From positions 1-64,000 of the forward strand of contig JAYGCM010000010.1 of NCBI GenBank assembly GCA_046583355.1: DNA of 64,000 nucleotides, in the 5' to 3' direction. Under the pieces are notes generated by a model. It made no database searches. It saw only the letters and a list, made by a program, of their open reading frames with translations, and was not told the DNA's origin. The stretch comes from Deltaproteobacteria bacterium (lineage in GTDB: Bacteria > Desulfobacterota > Binatia > UBA12015). Of this stretch, positions 14,294 through 42,552 are shown one piece after another (the stretch's first letter is position 1; every line of letters begins with the position of its first letter). The position numbers and the translations under genes were made by a program.

Positions 14294-15541
14294 ATGGGCA
14301 AGAAGATCCTGGTCGTTGATGACGAAGAGAAAATCCGTCAGAGCCTGCGCGGCGTGCTCTCCGATGAGGGCCATGTGGTCGTGGAGGCCGGTGACGGCCG
14401 ACAGGCCTTGGAAGTCCTGGACGCAGAGCAGCCGGATCTGGTGATTCTCGACGTCTGGCTCCCCGAGGTCGATGGCCTGACGTTGCTGGAGAAGATCAAG
14501 GGCGAGCACCCGGAACTGCCCGTCATCATCATCTGTGGGCATGCCAATATCGAGGCGGCCGTACGCGCCACCCGGTTGGGTGCCTCGGATTTCATCGAGA
14601 AGCCTTTCTCGATCGAGGCCATCCTCGCCTCGATCACGCGCGCGCTGGGAGACGCGGCCAGTGCCGATTCGGGCGAGCCTGCATGGAGTGGGGCGGTGGT
14701 CTCGGACAACGCGGACCTCGTCGTGCCGCAGAAAACCATCGGCCGTAGCGTGACGGCGAGTGGCCGCGGGCTACATACGGGCATCAAGACCGGAATCATT
14801 CTGCATCCCGTTCCGGCCGGCACCGGCATCCTCTTCCAGAGTCTGGCCACCGAGAAGTCCGTACCGGCACACGTCGATTTCGCCGACTCCACGGGCTACG
14901 CGACCACGCTTTTTCGCGGTGGCTTCGGCGCAAAAACCGTCGAGCACCTTCTCGCCACCCTGCAGGGCTACGGCATCACCAATCTCATGGTGAAAATGGA
15001 GGGCGAGGTGCCGATTCTCGACGGCTCGGCTGCGGTCTTCTGCGATCTGATCGAAGAGGCCGGTATTATCGAGCAACCCGGTCCGGGGGTTACGCCCTTC
15101 ATCGTGCGCGAGCGCCATGCGGTCGAGATCGGTGGCAATACGATTGTCGTCGAGCCCCATGACGGTCTTCTGATCGACTATACGCTGGACTACCCGGCTC
15201 CTGTGGGCATGCAACACTTTGTCTTCGACTTCACGGGTGTGGAATCCTTCAAGAAGGAAATCGCACCTGCACGGACCTTCGGCTTCGTGCATGAGTTCCG
15301 TCAATTAGTCGAAAATGGTCTCGCCGCGGGCGGGCAGCTCGACAATTGCGTACTCATCGGTGAGGACGGCGTGATCAATGGCGAATTGCGTTTTGAAGAC
15401 GAGTTCGTACGGCATAAAATTCTCGATATCATCGGGGACTTCGCGCTTCTCGGCCAACCGCTGCGGGCCCGGATTACCGCACGCGCTACCGGCCATCGTC
15501 ATAATGTCGCGATGGTGCGCGAACTCCTTGCCGCCGCGTAG
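14294..15541 (+). CDS. lpxC: Fusion of an NtrX-like receiver domain and UDP-3-O-acyl-GlcNAc deacetylase LpxC
   Basis: aa 1-118 are a REC domain (DD9-10, D53, K103-P). aa 146-415 are LpxC (QKTI, GxGLHTG, TVEH, EVPILDGS, EIAPARTFGF, RHKILDIIGD, GH). Single uninterrupted ORF. Confidence 0.95.
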   Translation: MGKKILVVDDEEKIRQSLRGVLSDEGHVVVEAGDGRQALEVLDAEQPDLVILDVWLPEVDGLTLLEKIKGEHPELPVIIICGHANIEAAVRATRLGASDFIEKPFSIEAILASITRALGDAASADSGEPAWSGAVVSDNADLVVPQKTIGRSVTASGRGLHTGIKTGIILHPVPAGTGILFQSLATEKSVPAHVDFADSTGYATTLFRGGFGAKTVEHLLATLQGYGITNLMVKMEGEVPILDGSAAVFCDLIEEAGIIEQPGPGVTPFIVRERHAVEIGGNTIVVEPHDGLLIDYTLDYPAPVGMQHFVFDFTGVESFKKEIAPARTFGFVHEFRQLVENGLAAGGQLDNCVLIGEDGVINGELRFEDEFVRHKILDIIGDFALLGQPLRARITARATGHRHNVAMVRELLAAA

Positions 15542-35465: not shown

Positions 35466-37834
35466 TCCGCAATTTCCGAGGGTGCCTTGAGGGGCTCTTT
35501 TTCTGTCTCGGTGCGTTCTTGCTCGTGGCCGCCACGCCGGTGCATGCGGCGGGACCGATCATCTCGAAGATCGAAGTGCGCGGCAATGACCGGGTCGATA
35601 TGCACGCGATTCTGCTCAACGCGCGTACCCGTGCCGGCGATACCTACGAGGCTGCCGCCATGGACCGCGACCTGCGCTCGGTCTGGCGGATGGGCTTCTT
35701 TGAAGACATCCTCATCCACCTCGAGCGGACGCCGGGACGTACAGGCTATGTGACGATGGTCGTCGAGGTGGTGGAGCGGCCGCTGATCGACGCCGTCGTG
35801 CTCGAAGGCGACCACGAGATCGATGAGCAGAAGCTCGACCACGCCCTCGGCGTGCGCGCGCGAACGATCTATGACCCCGAGAAGGTCCGCCAGGGAATTC
35901 TTCGTGCCGACAAGCTCTTCGAGGAGGAGGGCTACCTCGACGCGAAGATCACGACGCGGCTCGATCCCGGCGCGAAGCTCGGCGAAGTCGAACTGGTCTA
36001 TGAGCTCGATCCGGGGAACCCGGTGCGGGTCGGCGATATCATCTTTGAAGGCAATGAGGAGTTCAGCGGGCGCCAATTGCGCGGCGTGATGGAGACCAAG
36101 GAGGCCTGGTTCCTCTCTTGGCTCTTCGACTCCGGGATGCTCAAAAACGAGATCCTCGAGACGGACCTCGAGCGCATCAAGGCATATTATTACGATAACG
36201 GTTACGTCAACGTTCGAATTGACAAGCCGGAGATCGACCGCAAAGAAGACGCCATCGATATTCGGATCAAGATCGATGAGGGCGAGCAATTCCACTTCGG
36301 CCAGATCCGCTTCGTCGGCGACACGCAGACCGACAAGCCCATGGAAGAGTCCGAACTCTTCGAGCATATCCAGAGCGAATCGGGCGGCGTCTTCCGCGCC
36401 AGCCACCTGCGCAAGGATGTGGAATCGCTGACGGATTTCTTCGGCGACCAAGGCTACGCCTTTGCCAACGTCGAGCCCGAGACGACGATTCTGGCCGAGG
36501 AGAAGGCCGTTGATGTTCGTTTCCGGATCGACACGGGCAAGCCGGTGAAGATCGGCCGCATCGAAATCACCGGCAATACCAAGACCCGTGACAAGGTGAT
36601 CCGCCGCGAGTTGAAGGTCGACGAGCAGGAGACCTTCTCGGCCACCAAGCTCAAGAAGAGCAAAGATGCGCTCAACCGCATGGGCTTCTTCCAGGGCGTG
36701 AATGTCACCACCCGGCAATCGGGCAACCCCGACGAGATCAATCTCCTTGTCGATGTGAAGGAGGGCTCGACCGGCACCTTCAGCGCCGGCGCGGGCTTCA
36801 GTTCCGACGATCGCTTCCTCTTCAATATCCGGATCTCCGAGAACAATCTTCTCGGGCGCGGCCTGCGCGTCGTCCTGAACGCCGACGTCGGCACGATCCG
36901 GCGCAATATCTACATCTCAGCGACCGACCCCTATTTCCTCGATACGCAATTATTCACCTCGGTGACGCTCTTTGATTACCGCCTTGAGTTCCCGGATTTC
37001 TCGCGCGAGGCAATCGGCCTCTCGGTGCGGGCGCTCTATCCCTTCGAGGCATTGGGCATCAGCCATGTCGGCTGGTTCGACCTCTCGGATAGTCGCATCG
37101 GACTCGAATACCGTTTGGAGCAGGCGCAGATCGGCAATGTCTCGATCTTTGCACCGCCCAGCGTCTATGCCTCGCGCGGCCGCGAGGTGATCTCCTCGAT
37201 CGCTCCGTCGTTCCTGCGCAATACTCTGAATCACGCCTTTGATCCGACCGAGGGCTCCTACCAGGATATCTCGTTCGAGTTTGCCGGGATCGGCGGCAAT
37301 ACGACTTATTTCCGAGCCGAAATGCGGGCGCGTTGGTTTATTCCCTTGCTGCAGGTCGGTTCGCTGGGGCCCCTGGTCTTCTCGACCGGCGGGCGCTTCG
37401 GTTGGGGCATCGGCGAAGACGGCCTCTCGGGCCGCGAAATTCCGCTGATCGAGCGCTATTTCCCCGGCGGCATCAATAGTGTGCGCGGCTTTGAGGTCCG
37501 GACTCTCGGGCCGCGCGAAAATGTCTACGGTACGCAGGGCGGATATCTCGGCAGCGAGCCTATCGGCGGCACCAACCAGCTGATCGTGCAAAGCGAGTTC
37601 ATCATCCCCTTGGTGCCGCAGCTCGGACTGCGTGGCGTCATCTTCTTCGATATGGGCAACGCATGGTTGCAGCGCGACGGTATCGATTTCGGGAACCTCC
37701 GCTATTCGGTGGGTGGCGGCGTCCGTTGGCTCTCGCCCTTCGGACCGTTACGGATTGAGTTGGGTGTTCCCCTGAACCTCGGGCCGAATGAAGAATCGGA
37801 AGGAATCCTCTTCTCGTTCGGCGCACCTCTTTAA
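35462..37834 (+). CDS. bamA: Outer-membrane protein assembly factor BamA
   Basis: Signal peptide, POTRA repeats, GNTKTRDKVIRRE, VRGF, WLSPFGP. Confidence 0.97.
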   Translation: MIRNFRGCLEGLFFCLGAFLLVAATPVHAAGPIISKIEVRGNDRVDMHAILLNARTRAGDTYEAAAMDRDLRSVWRMGFFEDILIHLERTPGRTGYVTMVVEVVERPLIDAVVLEGDHEIDEQKLDHALGVRARTIYDPEKVRQGILRADKLFEEEGYLDAKITTRLDPGAKLGEVELVYELDPGNPVRVGDIIFEGNEEFSGRQLRGVMETKEAWFLSWLFDSGMLKNEILETDLERIKAYYYDNGYVNVRIDKPEIDRKEDAIDIRIKIDEGEQFHFGQIRFVGDTQTDKPMEESELFEHIQSESGGVFRASHLRKDVESLTDFFGDQGYAFANVEPETTILAEEKAVDVRFRIDTGKPVKIGRIEITGNTKTRDKVIRRELKVDEQETFSATKLKKSKDALNRMGFFQGVNVTTRQSGNPDEINLLVDVKEGSTGTFSAGAGFSSDDRFLFNIRISENNLLGRGLRVVLNADVGTIRRNIYISATDPYFLDTQLFTSVTLFDYRLEFPDFSREAIGLSVRALYPFEALGISHVGWFDLSDSRIGLEYRLEQAQIGNVSIFAPPSVYASRGREVISSIAPSFLRNTLNHAFDPTEGSYQDISFEFAGIGGNTTYFRAEMRARWFIPLLQVGSLGPLVFSTGGRFGWGIGEDGLSGREIPLIERYFPGGINSVRGFEVRTLGPRENVYGTQGGYLGSEPIGGTNQLIVQSEFIIPLVPQLGLRGVIFFDMGNAWLQRDGIDFGNLRYSVGGGVRWLSPFGPLRIELGVPLNLGPNEESEGILFSFGAPL

Positions 37835-37853
37835 GTTGGAAGGAATGAAACAA

Positions 37854-38375
37854 ATGAATCGTATTCAGACACTCGTCGCTGTCCTCGTGGCAGGACTCAT
37901 CAGCACCGCCGGTATCGCTTCGGCTCAGTCGAAGGTCGGCTTTGTGAACCTGCAGCGCGCCGTGGCGGAGTCCGCCACCGGCAAGGCCGAGATGGGCAAA
38001 TTCCAAAAAGAGGTCGAGAAGCTCCGCGCCGAGATCGAGGCCGAGCAAAAGGAACTCGAAGCCCTCAAGCTCGAAATCGAGCGCAAGGCTGTCGTGATGA
38101 AGGAAGATGAGCGTCGCAAGCTCATCACCGACTTCGAGCATAAGCAAATCGATTTCAAGCGCAAAGTCGAAGAGACCCAGGTTGATCTTCAGGCGAAGAA
38201 TCAGACCGTCGTGAGCGCGCTCCTGCAGAAGCTCCAGCAGATCATCATCAAGGTGGGCACAGAGGGTGGCTATACCGGCATCTTCGATTCGGGCGGCGCG
38301 CAGGTGCTCTTTGCCGACCCCGCGAGCGAGCTGACCGATGAGGTCATCAAGGCGTTCGACGCGGACTTGAAATAG
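37854..38375 (+). CDS. skp: Periplasmic chaperone Skp/OmpH
   Basis: Signal peptide, KVGFVN, long coiled coil, ELTDEVIK. Follows bamA (alternative start 37845). Confidence 0.9.
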   Translation: MNRIQTLVAVLVAGLISTAGIASAQSKVGFVNLQRAVAESATGKAEMGKFQKEVEKLRAEIEAEQKELEALKLEIERKAVVMKEDERRKLITDFEHKQIDFKRKVEETQVDLQAKNQTVVSALLQKLQQIIIKVGTEGGYTGIFDSGGAQVLFADPASELTDEVIKAFDADLK

Positions 38376-38387
38376 GCGCAACCGGCC

Positions 38388-39659
38388 TTGTCGGATATAA
38401 AGATCTCGCCGGTCCAGCTCCTGCCGCACCGCTATCCGTTTCTTCTGATTGATCGGGTAGTCGAGATCGAGCCGGGCAAACGGATCGTCGCGATCAAGAA
38501 TATCACGCGTAACGAGCCGCAATTCACCGGGCATTTCCCGGAACGGCCGATCATGCCGGGTGTGCTGCTTTGCGAGGCGATGGCGCAGGCCGGTGGGTTG
38601 CTGGTTTCGGCGACGGTCAACGGCAGCCTCGAATTGGCGGCGGCGGCCGAAGAACTCTTTTTGGTTCTGACCACATTGGACCAGGTCCGTTTTCGGCGCC
38701 AGGTGGTGCCGGGCGATCAGGTCGAGATCGAGGTCGAGTTGGTGCGCAAGCATCGGCCGCTGTGGAAGCTCAAGGGCCGCGCGATGGTCGAGGGCCAACT
38801 CGCTGCGCAGGCTGAGTTCTCTGCGGTCGAGGTCGACCCCGACGAGGGCCCGGCGCGCAAGGAAATACGGACCGTGCCCTCGGCCGATGTGCACCCGACG
38901 GCTGTCGTCGCGCGTGGCGCAAAGCTCGAAGAAGGGGTGGTCGTCGGTCCCTATTCGATCATCGGCGAGCATGTCCACCTCGGTCGCGGCACGCAGGTCG
39001 GGCCGCATGCGACCATCGAGGGCAATACGACGCTGGGTGAAGATTGTGTGATCTCGCCGTATGCCAGCGTTGGCTCGGTGCCGCAGGACAAGAAATTCCA
39101 CGGCGAGAATAGCCGTCTGGTGGTTGGCGCACGCAACCGTATTCGCGAATACGCGACGCTCAGCGTGGGCACCGAAGATGGCGGCATGGTCACGACGGTC
39201 GGCGACGATAACCTCTTCATGAACTTCAGCCACGTCGCGCATGATTGCGTGATCGGCAACCATTGCATTCTCGCCAACGGCGCCCAATTGGCCGGTCATG
39301 TGACGGTCGAGAATCACGCGATCATCTCCGGTCTGGCTGCGATCGCGCAATTCTCGCGGATCGGTGAGTCGGCCTTTCTCGGCGGTGGCACCATGGTGGT
39401 AAAAGATGTGCCGCCCTTCTGCCTGGCCAACGGGGACCGCGCGAAGCTCACCGGCCTCAATGTCGTCGGCCTGGAGAGGCGCGGCTTCTCGGCCGAACAG
39501 GTGCTCGAGCTGAAACAGGCATATCGTTCGCTTTTCCGCTCCGGCGCATTGGCTAAAGATGCGATTGCGGAGATCCGCCGGGATCTGCCGGACTCGGCGC
39601 GTGCCGGCCAGTTGGCGGATTTCGTGGCCGCGAGCGAACGCGGCGTGACGCGCCCGTAG
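38388..39659 (+). CDS. lpxA: Fusion of 3-hydroxyacyl-ACP dehydratase FabZ and UDP-GlcNAc acyltransferase LpxA
   Basis: aa 1 to about 150 are FabZ ([17 protein letters not shown]49, E63 AMAQ). From about aa 165 it is LpxA (VHPTA, hexapeptide repeats, PQDKKF, HVAHDC, DVPPF, GLNVVGL, RG). No stop between them. Confidence 0.95.
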
Positions 39660-40493
39660 GTGTCGGAATTGGCCGAGAAGAAGCTCGCCTTAATCGCCGG
39701 CAACGGGGTATTTCCCGTGCTGGTGGCTCGTGGTGCGAAAGCCGCCGGGGTTGAGGTCGTGGCGGTTGCGCACCGAGGCGAGACCGACCCGTCCATCGAA
39801 GACGAGGTTGCCGAGGTGACCTGGGTGAAGGTCGGCGAGCTTGGCCGCACCATTCGTACCTTCGTTGCTGCGGGCTGCGACCACGCCGTTTTGGCAGGAG
39901 GGATCGGCAAGGTGCGCGCTTTGAGCGATGTGCGGCCGGATCTCCGCGGTGCGGCGTTACTCCTGAAGACGCGCACGCTCAAGGACGATCGGCTGCTGCG
40001 CGGCATTGCGGACGAATTGAGCAAGGACGGGCTCCCCGTGGTCTCCTCGACGCGCTACCTGCCCGAGTTGGTGCCCCAGCCAGGTGCCTTGACGCGCAAG
40101 GCACCGGGGCGCGCTGCGCTGGAAGATATCGCGCTCGGTCGTCGCGTGCTGGCGGCCACCGGCGCCTTCGAGATCGGCCAGAGCGTGGTGGTCAAGGGTG
40201 GGTTGGTCTACGCCCTGGAAGCTGTGGAGGGCACGGATGCAGCGATCCGTCGCGGCGGCGAGGCGGCCCATGGCGGCGCCATCGTCGTGAAAGCTGCCAA
40301 GCCCGAGCAGGATCTACGCTTCGATGTCCCGGCCATCGGGCCTGGCACCATCGTGCAGATGCAGGAAGTCGGCGCTGTGGTTCTGGCCATCGAGGCCGGG
40401 CGTACCATCGTTCTGGACAGGCCGGCGGTAGTGGCCGCGGCCGAAGCGGCGGGGATTCGCGTCTTCGCCTTCGACCCCGAGGAGAAACCATGA
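39660..40493 (+). CDS. lpxI: UDP-2,3-diacylglucosamine diphosphatase LpxI
   Basis: LIAGNGVFP, IGQSVVV, EAVEGTD, KPEQDLRFDVPAIG. Confidence 0.93.
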   Translation: MSELAEKKLALIAGNGVFPVLVARGAKAAGVEVVAVAHRGETDPSIEDEVAEVTWVKVGELGRTIRTFVAAGCDHAVLAGGIGKVRALSDVRPDLRGAALLLKTRTLKDDRLLRGIADELSKDGLPVVSSTRYLPELVPQPGALTRKAPGRAALEDIALGRRVLAATGAFEIGQSVVVKGGLVYALEAVEGTDAAIRRGGEAAHGGAIVVKAAKPEQDLRFDVPAIGPGTIVQMQEVGAVVLAIEAGRTIVLDRPAVVAAAEAAGIRVFAFDPEEKP

Positions 40494-41428
40494 GCGCCAA
40501 ACCTACACGTGTCGCGGTGGTCGGAACCGGCCATCTCGGAACCTACCATGCTGAGAAATACGCAGCGATCGAAGGCGTCGATCTGGTCGCGGTGGTGGAC
40601 GTCGATATCGAGCGTGCCCGCGCTCTCGGCGAGCGCCTCTCGTGCGGCGCCAAGAGCGATTATCTCGAACTCATCGGCGAGGTCGATTGTGTCAGCGTTG
40701 CGGTGCCGACAAGTCTGCACCGCCTGGTCGCGGGCCAATTGCTCGAAGCTGGCATCGATTGCTTGGTCGAGAAACCGCTGGCGGCCAGTAGTGCCGAGGC
40801 CGAAGAGTTGGTCGGCTTGGCCCGCGCAAACGATTGTATCCTTCAGGTCGGGCACCTGGAGCGCTTCAACCCGGCCTTGATCCGCTTGGCCGGCATGATC
40901 CGCCGACCGCGTTTCGTCGAATGCCATCGCCTCGCCCCGTTTACGCCGCGCGGGGCCGATGTGGACGTGGTGCGCGACCTGATGATCCACGACCTCGATC
41001 TGATCGCGCTTCTGCAGCCGGCCGAGATCGTCAGCATCGATAGCGTCGGAATCAAAGTATTGACGCAAAACGTCGACCTCGCCAATGTCCGCCTGCGTTT
41101 TGCCGACCGCTGTGTCGCCAACCTGACGGCGAGTCGGGTTTCGGCCAAACGCGAGCGCAAGCTACGGCTGTTTCAATCCGACCTTTATATTACGATTGAC
41201 CTGGGCGAGCGTAAGGCAGGGGTCGCGCACCGTCGCGTCGCCGAGGATGGAACTCTCTCGATTGAATGGGAGGACCTGGATCTGGGTGAGGGCGATGCGC
41301 TCGAAGCACAGATCCGTGCGTTTGTGGCCTCGGTGCAGACGCGCGCGCGTGCGGCGACGACCGGCGAAGATGGCACCCGCGCGCTGCATCTTTGCGAGCG
41401 CATCCTCGCCTCGATGGAGACCGAATGA
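40490..41428 (+). CDS. Gfo/Idh/MocA oxidoreductase, GnnA-like
   Basis: GTGHLG, EKP, VGHLERFNP, DLMIHDLD, ASRVS. Lies between lpxI and lpxB. Confidence 0.85.
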   Translation: MSAKPTRVAVVGTGHLGTYHAEKYAAIEGVDLVAVVDVDIERARALGERLSCGAKSDYLELIGEVDCVSVAVPTSLHRLVAGQLLEAGIDCLVEKPLAASSAEAEELVGLARANDCILQVGHLERFNPALIRLAGMIRRPRFVECHRLAPFTPRGADVDVVRDLMIHDLDLIALLQPAEIVSIDSVGIKVLTQNVDLANVRLRFADRCVANLTASRVSAKRERKLRLFQSDLYITIDLGERKAGVAHRRVAEDGTLSIEWEDLDLGEGDALEAQIRAFVASVQTRARAATTGEDGTRALHLCERILASMETE

Positions 41429-42552
41429 GCTCTGGCCCGCGCGTTTTGATGGTCGCGGGGGAGGCCTCGGGGGATCTGCGCGGCGCCGAATTGATTGAGG
41501 AATTGCGCCGCCGGGTACCCGATCTGCAACTCTCGGGCGTAGGTGGTGAGCGTCTGCGCGCCGCCGGCATGGAGATTCTCGTAAGCGCCGAGGAACTCTC
41601 GATCATGGGGATCACCGAGGTCTTTGCCCAGGCCGGGACGATTCTGCGCTCCTATGCCAAGATCCGGCGCGCCATCCGCGGCCAGAACGGCGCGCGCCCG
41701 GACCTCGTGATTCTGATCGATTTTCCGGATTATAATCTGCGTCTGGCCCGGGTGGCCAAGCGCGTGGGCGTCCCGGTTTTCTATTATATCAGCCCGCAGG
41801 TCTGGGCGTGGCGTCGCTACCGAATCAAAACTCTGGCGCGCCGGGTCGATCGCCTCGCCGTCGTCTTCCCCTTCGAAGCCGAACTTTTCACGGGGCTGAC
41901 GCAGGTCGATTTCGTCGGCCATCCGGCGCTGGAAACCGTACGTGCCGAACGCTCCCGCGAAGAAGTGCGTGCTGATCTGGGCATCCCTGAAGGCAAACGA
42001 TTGGTCGCGCTTTTGCCGGGCAGTCGCAATGCCGAAGTCGCCTCGCTGCTGCCGTCCATGTTGGGTGCCCTGGAGCAGCAGGATAACGTCGCCGGTGTGA
42101 TTGCCCTGGCCGGCGAGAGGCTGCGCCCGGCGGTCAGCGAGGCCGGCGGTGGGTCTCTTCCCATGGTGGTCGGCTCTACCTGGGACCTGGTGGCCGCCGC
42201 CGATCTTGTGCTCCTTGCCTCGGGGACTGCCACGCTCGAGACGGCGCTTCTGGGTACGCCCATGGTGGTCTCCTACCGTCTTTCGGCTTTGACCTATGCC
42301 ATCGTGCGTATGCTCGTGCGGGTCGACCATATCGCCATGCCGAATCTCATCCTCGAGCGCCGTGCGGTGCCTGAGTTGGTGCAAGCCGAGGTGAGCGCCG
42401 AGCGCATGGCGGCTGAGGCGCGAGCGATCCTCGACGACCCGGGCCGGGCAGCGGCCATGCGGGCCGATCTGGCACAGGTGCGCGAGCGTCTGGGCGAGGC
42501 GGGCGCGGCTGGGCGGGCGGCGGCGATCGCAGCTGGGATGCTCGGTCTTTGA
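41425..42552 (+). CDS. lpxB: Lipid-A-disaccharide synthase
   Basis: AGEASGD, IDFPDYN, SPQVWAWR, FVGHP, LLPGSR, SGTATLE. Confidence 0.97.
   Translation: MSSGPRVLMVAGEASGDLRGAELIEELRRRVPDLQLSGVGGERLRAAGMEILVSAEELSIMGITEVFAQAGTILRSYAKIRRAIRGQNGARPDLVILIDFPDYNLRLARVAKRVGVPVFYYISPQVWAWRRYRIKTLARRVDRLAVVFPFEAELFTGLTQVDFVGHPALETVRAERSREEVRADLGIPEGKRLVALLPGSRNAEVASLLPSMLGALEQQDNVAGVIALAGERLRPAVSEAGGGSLPMVVGSTWDLVAAADLVLLASGTATLETALLGTPMVVSYRLSALTYAIVRMLVRVDHIAMPNLILERRAVPELVQAEVSAERMAAEARAILDDPGRAAAMRADLAQVRERLGEAGAAGRAAAIAAGMLGL

Follow-up and report, generated by a model that had tools for sequence, protein, structure and literature searches.

The fused gene and its lipid A operon

Directly downstream of skp, the window (the whole analysed stretch of 64,000 nucleotides) carries a single stop-free frame of 423 codons, starting with TTG and ending with TAG, in which FabZ is joined to LpxA. 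The features of this locus are:

37788..38375, forward strand: skp/ompH, directly upstream of the fusion
38388..39659, forward strand: fused fabZ-lpxA gene (423 aa, 45.4 kDa calculated)
38415..38828, forward strand: FabZ hot-dog dehydratase domain, residues 10-147 (TIGR01750, alignments to solved FabZ structures, Foldseek)
38532-38534, forward strand: FabZ catalytic H49
38574-38576, forward strand: FabZ catalytic E63
38835..38888, forward strand: inter-domain linker of 18 aa, residues 150-167
38883..39653, forward strand: LpxA left-handed beta-helix and helical domain, residues 166-422 (TIGR01852, PRK05289, 1lxa alignment, Foldseek)
39240-39242, forward strand: LpxA catalytic H285, adjoined by D286
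39660..40493, forward strand: lpxI-like gene (Pfam LpxI_N and LpxI_C; below the NCBIfam equivalog cut-off)
40490..41428, forward strand: Gfo/Idh/MocA oxidoreductase, candidate GnnA (best NCBIfam match UDP-N-acetylglucosamine 3-dehydrogenase, under its cut-off)
41425..42552, forward strand: lpxB, followed by the msbA-like ABC gene, DUF374, kdtA and lpxK

Named from Pfam matches, the genes are ordered lolE-like, lolD-like, bamA, skp, fabZ-lpxA, lpxI, Gfo/Idh/MocA, lpxB, msbA-like, DUF374, kdtA and lpxK, with the lpxI-like gene beginning at the base right after the stop codon of the fusion. A promoter scan returned no site. No lpxD is present between skp and fabZ, and lpxC is a separate gene at positions 14729-15529 of the window. 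The lpxD gene of the genome lies outside the lipid A operon (G000:C47:53106-54116, L003), upstream of yceD-like, fabD-like and fabG-like genes as named from their sequences.

The candidate GnnA finds its best PDB match in 7bvj (E 5e-61), which we take to be GnnA. Should this role hold, LpxA would form an amide. Amide formation by LpxA is favourable. The position of the gene between lpxI and lpxB suggests a lipid A backbone containing diaminoglucose; GnnA and GnnB together supply some lipids A with their diamino sugar (PMC5644692 and PMC3342949, in their accessible parts). Beside the GnnA-like gene no aminotransferase was found as GnnB candidate, and two DegT-family genes are located on other contigs of the same genome. 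Among the Binatia loci, some of which reach only about 2 kb downstream, a GnnA-like gene follows in 30 of 41 with the fusion and in 27 of 35 with separate genes; a tie between the fusion and this gene was discarded, as these frequencies show no link.

The original prediction of FabZ and LpxA in one frame, with H49 and E63 of FabZ intact and H285 of LpxA equivalent to H125 of E. coli, is borne out. Pfam assigns FabA (residues 12-142), Hexapep and Acetyltransf_11 (340-420) to the protein, and both halves exceed the NCBIfam equivalog cut-offs, the first with 174 versus 155 bits for fabZ (TIGR01750, residues 10-147) and the second with 326 versus 231 bits for lpxA (TIGR01852, residues 168-420) as well as 346 bits against PRK05289 (cut-off 226, residues 166-422). 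The FabZ half contains a His-Glu dyad, with Glu and not the Asp of FabA, and its H49-F50, E63 and Y16-P17 motifs are present, in agreement with the defining features of FabZ (His-Glu dyad, Tyr-Pro and His-Phe motifs) given in the available text of PMC2698920. In the alignment to E. coli LpxA (1lxa), H285 falls on H125, and the pair H125-D126, oxyanion G143 and contacts Q73, K76, H122, H144, Q161, N198 and R205 are all matched (residue list from the accessible part of PMC6286764). G333 takes the chain-length ruler position of E. coli G173 and leaves room for a long chain; M336 and R351, however, stand where E. coli has G176 and H191. Among the best 120 of 7614 homologs, E63 is kept in 120/120, H49 in 119/120 (the remaining sequence being truncated) and LpxA residues Q233, K236, H282, H285, D286, Q321, N358, R364 and R365 in all 120. 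Based on these residues, both halves look active.

Purifying selection acts on both halves: over nine pairs from the own family, dN/dS amounts to 0.03-0.22 for the FabZ half and 0.06-0.23 for the LpxA half, compared with 0.16-0.51 for the short linker, with several dS values near saturation. The 20 family genomes yield 18 fabZ matches over the cut-off, all of which are the fused domain, and in six of the 20 it is the sole fabZ match. The fused domain is hence the family's only FabZ over the curated cut-off. A further hot-dog gene of the own genome (73 bits on the fabZ model) belongs to a separate ketosynthase cluster at G000:C28:3797-7162 (L002), in which SDR, FabH-like, FabZ-like (His and Glu present) and FabF-like genes make up a second fatty-acid or polyketide-like pathway.

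Both domains fold as expected according to Foldseek, the LpxA half matching 5dep with an rmsd of 1.0 Å over 257 columns (left-handed beta-helix and C-terminal helical domain) and the FabZ half matching solved FabZ chains with TM values of 0.85-0.88 (hot-dog fold), while no chain spanning both halves occurs among the matches listed. The linker is far more variable: its length ranges from 8 to 36 residues among the best 120 homologs, none of its columns exceeds 38% conservation, and the mean share of the top residue is 0.23 as opposed to 0.70 and 0.73 in the domains. In the AlphaFold monomer (mean pLDDT 91, pTM 0.64) the linker drops below a pLDDT of 50 at residues 157-163, and no fixed or confident domain orientation is predicted by this monomer model, which is blind to contacts formed only in an oligomer.

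Inheritance, distribution and origins

The fusion is real and inherited family-wide. The best 120 of 7614 homologs are all fused and contain both domains, at 50-88% identity. A fused protein of 63% identity is named Candidatus Binatia, as is the record holding one of 71% identity. Within the own family of 20 genomes (own genome included), 17 encode the full fusion, two are cut by a contig end yet run stop-free across the linker, and one, the 88% complete G272, lacks the locus. Assembled contigs from four of 20 matching sequencing runs were additionally compared with the locus. Contigs of two other studies (runs X2 and X3 of study P2, run X7 of study P3) span the linker without indel or stop, and none of six substitutions checked around it creates a stop; the contig of RNA run X20 covers only 39618-39750, off the join. 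An assembly or sequencing artefact with a lost stop codon near the linker, conceivable because the genome is likely a metagenome assembly whose DNA occurs in marine metagenome runs, can thus be dismissed with near certainty in view of the fused homologs, the fusion in 19 of 20 family genomes and the independent stop-free contigs.

To follow the join through the class, 251 genomes were searched for stop-free matches across it. Among the best 150 matches, a stop-free join is found in 19/20 genomes of the own family, 18/19 of f89, 24/25 of f5 and 1/1 of f88. At 93 class loci selected from the match lists, fabZ and lpxA are fused in 43 (f1 17, f89 13, f88 1, f5 12) and separate but adjacent in 35, which are spread over nine families; the other 15 have no fabZ at the locus, two of these likely representing a second LpxA. 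The stop of fabZ and the start of lpxA overlap as ATGA or GTGA in 17 of the 35 unfused loci. At L135 (G241, family f86), the two genes share the same frame with just a stop codon and three bases between them, which would represent either a pre-fusion state or a reversion. No clear reversion to separate genes was seen in the own family. In family f5 (L039, L085-L095; P0124), the LPHRY motif is gone from the N-terminus of the fused FabZ, whose scores are about 90-103 bits; the domain keeps His and Glu and is the best fabZ match in most f5 genomes.

No fabZ match (TIGR01750, E <= 1e-8) was obtained in 17 of 121 class genomes that are at least 90% complete, namely G038, G207, G216, G225, G234, G243, G252, G261, G269, G277, G279, G285, G295, G301, G317 and G319, together with G290 of family f6 as an isolated miss. 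No genome of f91 (0/3), f94 (0/4), f96 (0/1) and f98 (0/1) gave a match, and in f2 and f90 only weak matches occur, in 2/6 and 3/6 genomes, respectively. At the fabZ-less loci viewed (e.g., L099, L111, L126 and L138-L140), skp runs directly into lpxA. To make fatty acids, such lineages would have to rely on a different dehydratase or a different route, and this apparent lack of fabZ may be more surprising than the fusion itself.

Outside the class, one of 27 top-scoring loci of the phylum is fused. A pattern scan (80 of 504 kept) contributed 79 loci from outside Binatia, none of them fused and 13 containing LpxC/FabZ. In a protein library clustered at 50% identity, 18 further full fusions were examined, one of which groups with f5; two of the fusion clusters are named Margulisiibacteriota and Armatimonadetes. 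Atlas clusters with the FabZ-LpxA architecture belong mostly to Acidobacteriota or Elusimicrobiota. Judged by these sequences, the fusion is less singular than the original prediction implied and recurs in several lineages. Individual variants include P0123 (586 aa, one contig), a tandem FabZ-FabZ-LpxA with His and Glu in both hot-dog domains, and P0137 and P0221, FabZ-LpxA fusions whose FabZ half is devoid of the catalytic His.

In an LpxA tree of 59 of 206 rows (23 fused and 36 unfused; a quick tree under a plain model), the AU test rejects a single clade of all 23 fused LpxA (p-AU 0.0009) and likewise a grouping of P0125 and P0129 with the Binatia fusions (p 0.0026). The join thus likely arose several times in bacteria, although transfer or later fission could also cause the rejection. 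The same tree splits the fused families of Binatia. A quick four-gene tree under a mixture model requires two changes, uniting f88, f89 and f5 with a support of 97 and leaving the own family apart, whereas all 18 fused loci are joined under the plain model with a support of 64. Inside Binatia, one or two origins are therefore possible.

How the two halves may work together

Probably, the fusion is a loosely tethered bifunctional enzyme, i.e., one 45-kDa protein whose halves do their usual jobs with no fixed interface. Two independently folding enzymes would be connected by a flexible, variable linker on a single polypeptide; we infer that it is expressed as the fused product, is active in both halves, forms oligomers and lacks an interface between the domains. 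This reading is based on the unconserved and low-confidence linker, the pTM of the model and the scarcity of an internal start at residue 162 (see below). The fusion probably originated when a fabZ stop codon and the lpxA start that overlapped or adjoined it were lost. As unfused sister families often overlap both codons, stop loss is an easy route, and for hot-dog fusions the loss of a stop between operon neighbours has been described (PMC516016, in the part available). Likely effects are synthesis of the fused pair at 1:1 and its co-localisation, not channelling.

Of the fixed stoichiometry originally proposed, only the part concerning the fused pair holds, because 18 of the 20 family genomes encode a second, free-standing LpxA that weakens a 1:1 coupling. 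Both genes are, moreover, already coupled through a stop/start overlap at 17 of 35 Binatia loci with separate genes. The LpxA step of E. coli is reversible and LpxC sets the flux (accessible text of PMC13333357), which limits how far control could be exerted through the FabZ:LpxA ratio. Counting against a mere loose tether, the fusion has been kept across four Binatia families, and its repeated origin and long persistence could reflect selection for something beyond convenience. The own genome gave no match over the cut-off to PRK11788, which we take to be the LapB model, and a zinc-ribbon family search for LapB returned one match there, a 463-codon frame. Since LpxA and FabZ both bind the LapB scaffold in E. 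coli (PMC13477621, accessible portion), proximity of the two enzymes may matter.

More ambitious is an ordered version of the acyl-ACP-partitioning complex of the original prediction, a branch-point machine in which a FabZ hexamer with an LpxA trimer at each three-fold pole would bias or hand over 3-hydroxyacyl-ACP; we consider it unlikely. The shared substrate of FabZ and LpxA is supported by the available text of PMC13333357, and, with FabZ a trimer of dimers (PMC5143422) and LpxA a trimer (PMC6286764; both papers in their accessible parts), the D3 and C3 symmetries can in principle be combined. By symmetry reasoning alone, six chains could form one hexamer and two trimers. The repeated origin and retention of the fusion would fit such a machine, the tandem FabZ of P0123, a single sequence, would suit one trimer on a pseudo-hexamer, and a 2026 review ascribes to FabZ, in its accessible part, a role beyond substrate competition (PMC13333357). 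However, a linker that varies four-fold in length with no conserved residue and a monomer model that predicts no confident domain orientation speak against an ordered arrangement. Furthermore, the two enzymes compete for their substrate instead of acting in sequence, which would leave no product to channel, and a free-standing LpxA exists beside the fusion.

The boldest version would be a repeatedly evolved megaenzyme of about 270 kDa, an LpxA-capped FabZ hexamer setting the share of 3-hydroxyacyl-ACP for lipid A without LapB, in which the GnnA-like gene supplies an amino-sugar and LpxA, forming an amide, becomes the committing step; this we regard as quite unlikely. If both the megaenzyme and the GnnA reading were true, FabZ would be fused to the committing enzyme, as in LpxC/FabZ.

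The second LpxA is encoded at G000:C13:17345-18157 (L006:1498-2310), is 40% identical and, with 270 bits, exceeds the curated cut-off. It is widespread in the class, with no copy found in the 97% complete G228. A role in compensating for the fusion was rejected, as it is present in unfused families too. In Capnocytophaga, two lpxA genes accompany a hybrid lipid A backbone (PMC3342949, in the part accessible). It is very doubtful, yet conceivable, that the fused LpxA half is down-tuned, that the second LpxA takes over some or even most of the initial lipid A reaction and that the fusion mainly serves FabZ. In all 17 sequences of the own family, H160 of E. coli is replaced by Ala (A320) and H99 by Ser (S259), while nearly all unfused families, like the remaining fused ones, retain H160. 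In E. coli LpxA, the H160A exchange lowers activity, possibly strongly. Neither residue defines the LpxA family, because LpxA proteins in general vary at the H99 position, and 56 of 70 representatives carry His at that of H160. Against down-tuning, the equivalents of H122, H125, D126, Q73, K76, H144, Q161, N198, R204 and R205 are kept in 17/17 family sequences, and the LpxA half evolves at the low dN/dS given above. The second LpxA itself carries Asn at D126 and Ala at K76, and its distribution covers fused as well as unfused families.

Highly improbable is a fused frame that nevertheless yields separate polypeptides through an internal start or cleavage in the linker. In the own gene, residue 162 is encoded by an in-frame GTG with an AAGGA ten bases upstream, which would be compatible with such products, as would the predicted disorder of the linker; a residue-162 start with a Shine-Dalgarno-like word is, however, present in only one of 17 family genes, and several genes of the family and of f89 lack any in-frame start within the linker. 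A conserved internal start yielding free LpxA was accordingly rejected.

Relation to known systems

That LpxC-FabZ is the familiar fusion, as originally stated, agrees with PMC3087551 (including Table S2) and PMC516016, in whose accessible parts only LpxC/FabZ is named as fused. Full-text searches of mostly open-access literature found no paper that describes a FabZ-LpxA fusion in its title or the opening of its abstract, nor do the available texts of PMC12152623, PMC5007114, PMC10426996 and PMC10863985 contain one. An NCBIfam search of the fused protein likewise gave no model for this fusion, and the source names of Binatia-like fusions mention just LpxA, so that the one canonical FabZ of the family goes unnoticed. 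The FabZ-LpxA fusion is recurrent, apparently undescribed in print and joins two textbook operon neighbours. How 3-hydroxyacyl-ACP is divided between phospholipid and LPS still counts as an open question in the accessible part of PMC13333357. Together with unfused sisters and versions with a dead or tandem FabZ, the natural FabZ-LpxA offers a simple test construct for enzyme proximity or ratio, and it represents an unsolved hexamer-plus-trimer assembly.

Like the fusion, the E. coli LapB hub of LpxA, LpxC, LpxD and FabZ brings FabZ near LpxA (accessible part of PMC13477621), but this proximity is non-covalent and scaffold-mediated. Closer in design is the bifunctional LpxC/FabZ (NF009667/PRK13188), reported for Bacteroidetes, Chlorobi and Verrucomicrobia (PMC3087551, in the part available), which likewise connects FabZ with a lipid A enzyme from a neighbouring operon gene at the same branch point. 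Here, in contrast, FabZ occupies the N-terminus with LpxA as its partner, each half is an oligomer and a separate gene encodes LpxC; the fused protein reaches 157 bits against NF009667 (cut-off 465) and has no LpxC domain by Pfam. The FabZ-LpxA fusions of other lineages share architecture and order and are annotated as LpxA or hypothetical proteins, yet they are 39-50% identical, do not form one clade with the Binatia fusions in the LpxA tree and in some cases lack the catalytic His of FabZ. Closest of all are the separate fabZ and lpxA genes of the lpxD-fabZ-lpxA-(lpxI)-lpxB cluster (PMC3087551, Table S2), with the same enzymes, order, operon context (bamA, skp, lpxI, lpxB) and catalytic residues; the differences are the single polypeptide, the location of lpxD on another contig and the replacement of H160 and H99 by Ala and Ser. 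The fusion is, hence, a modest variation on known enzymes that implies no new chemistry.
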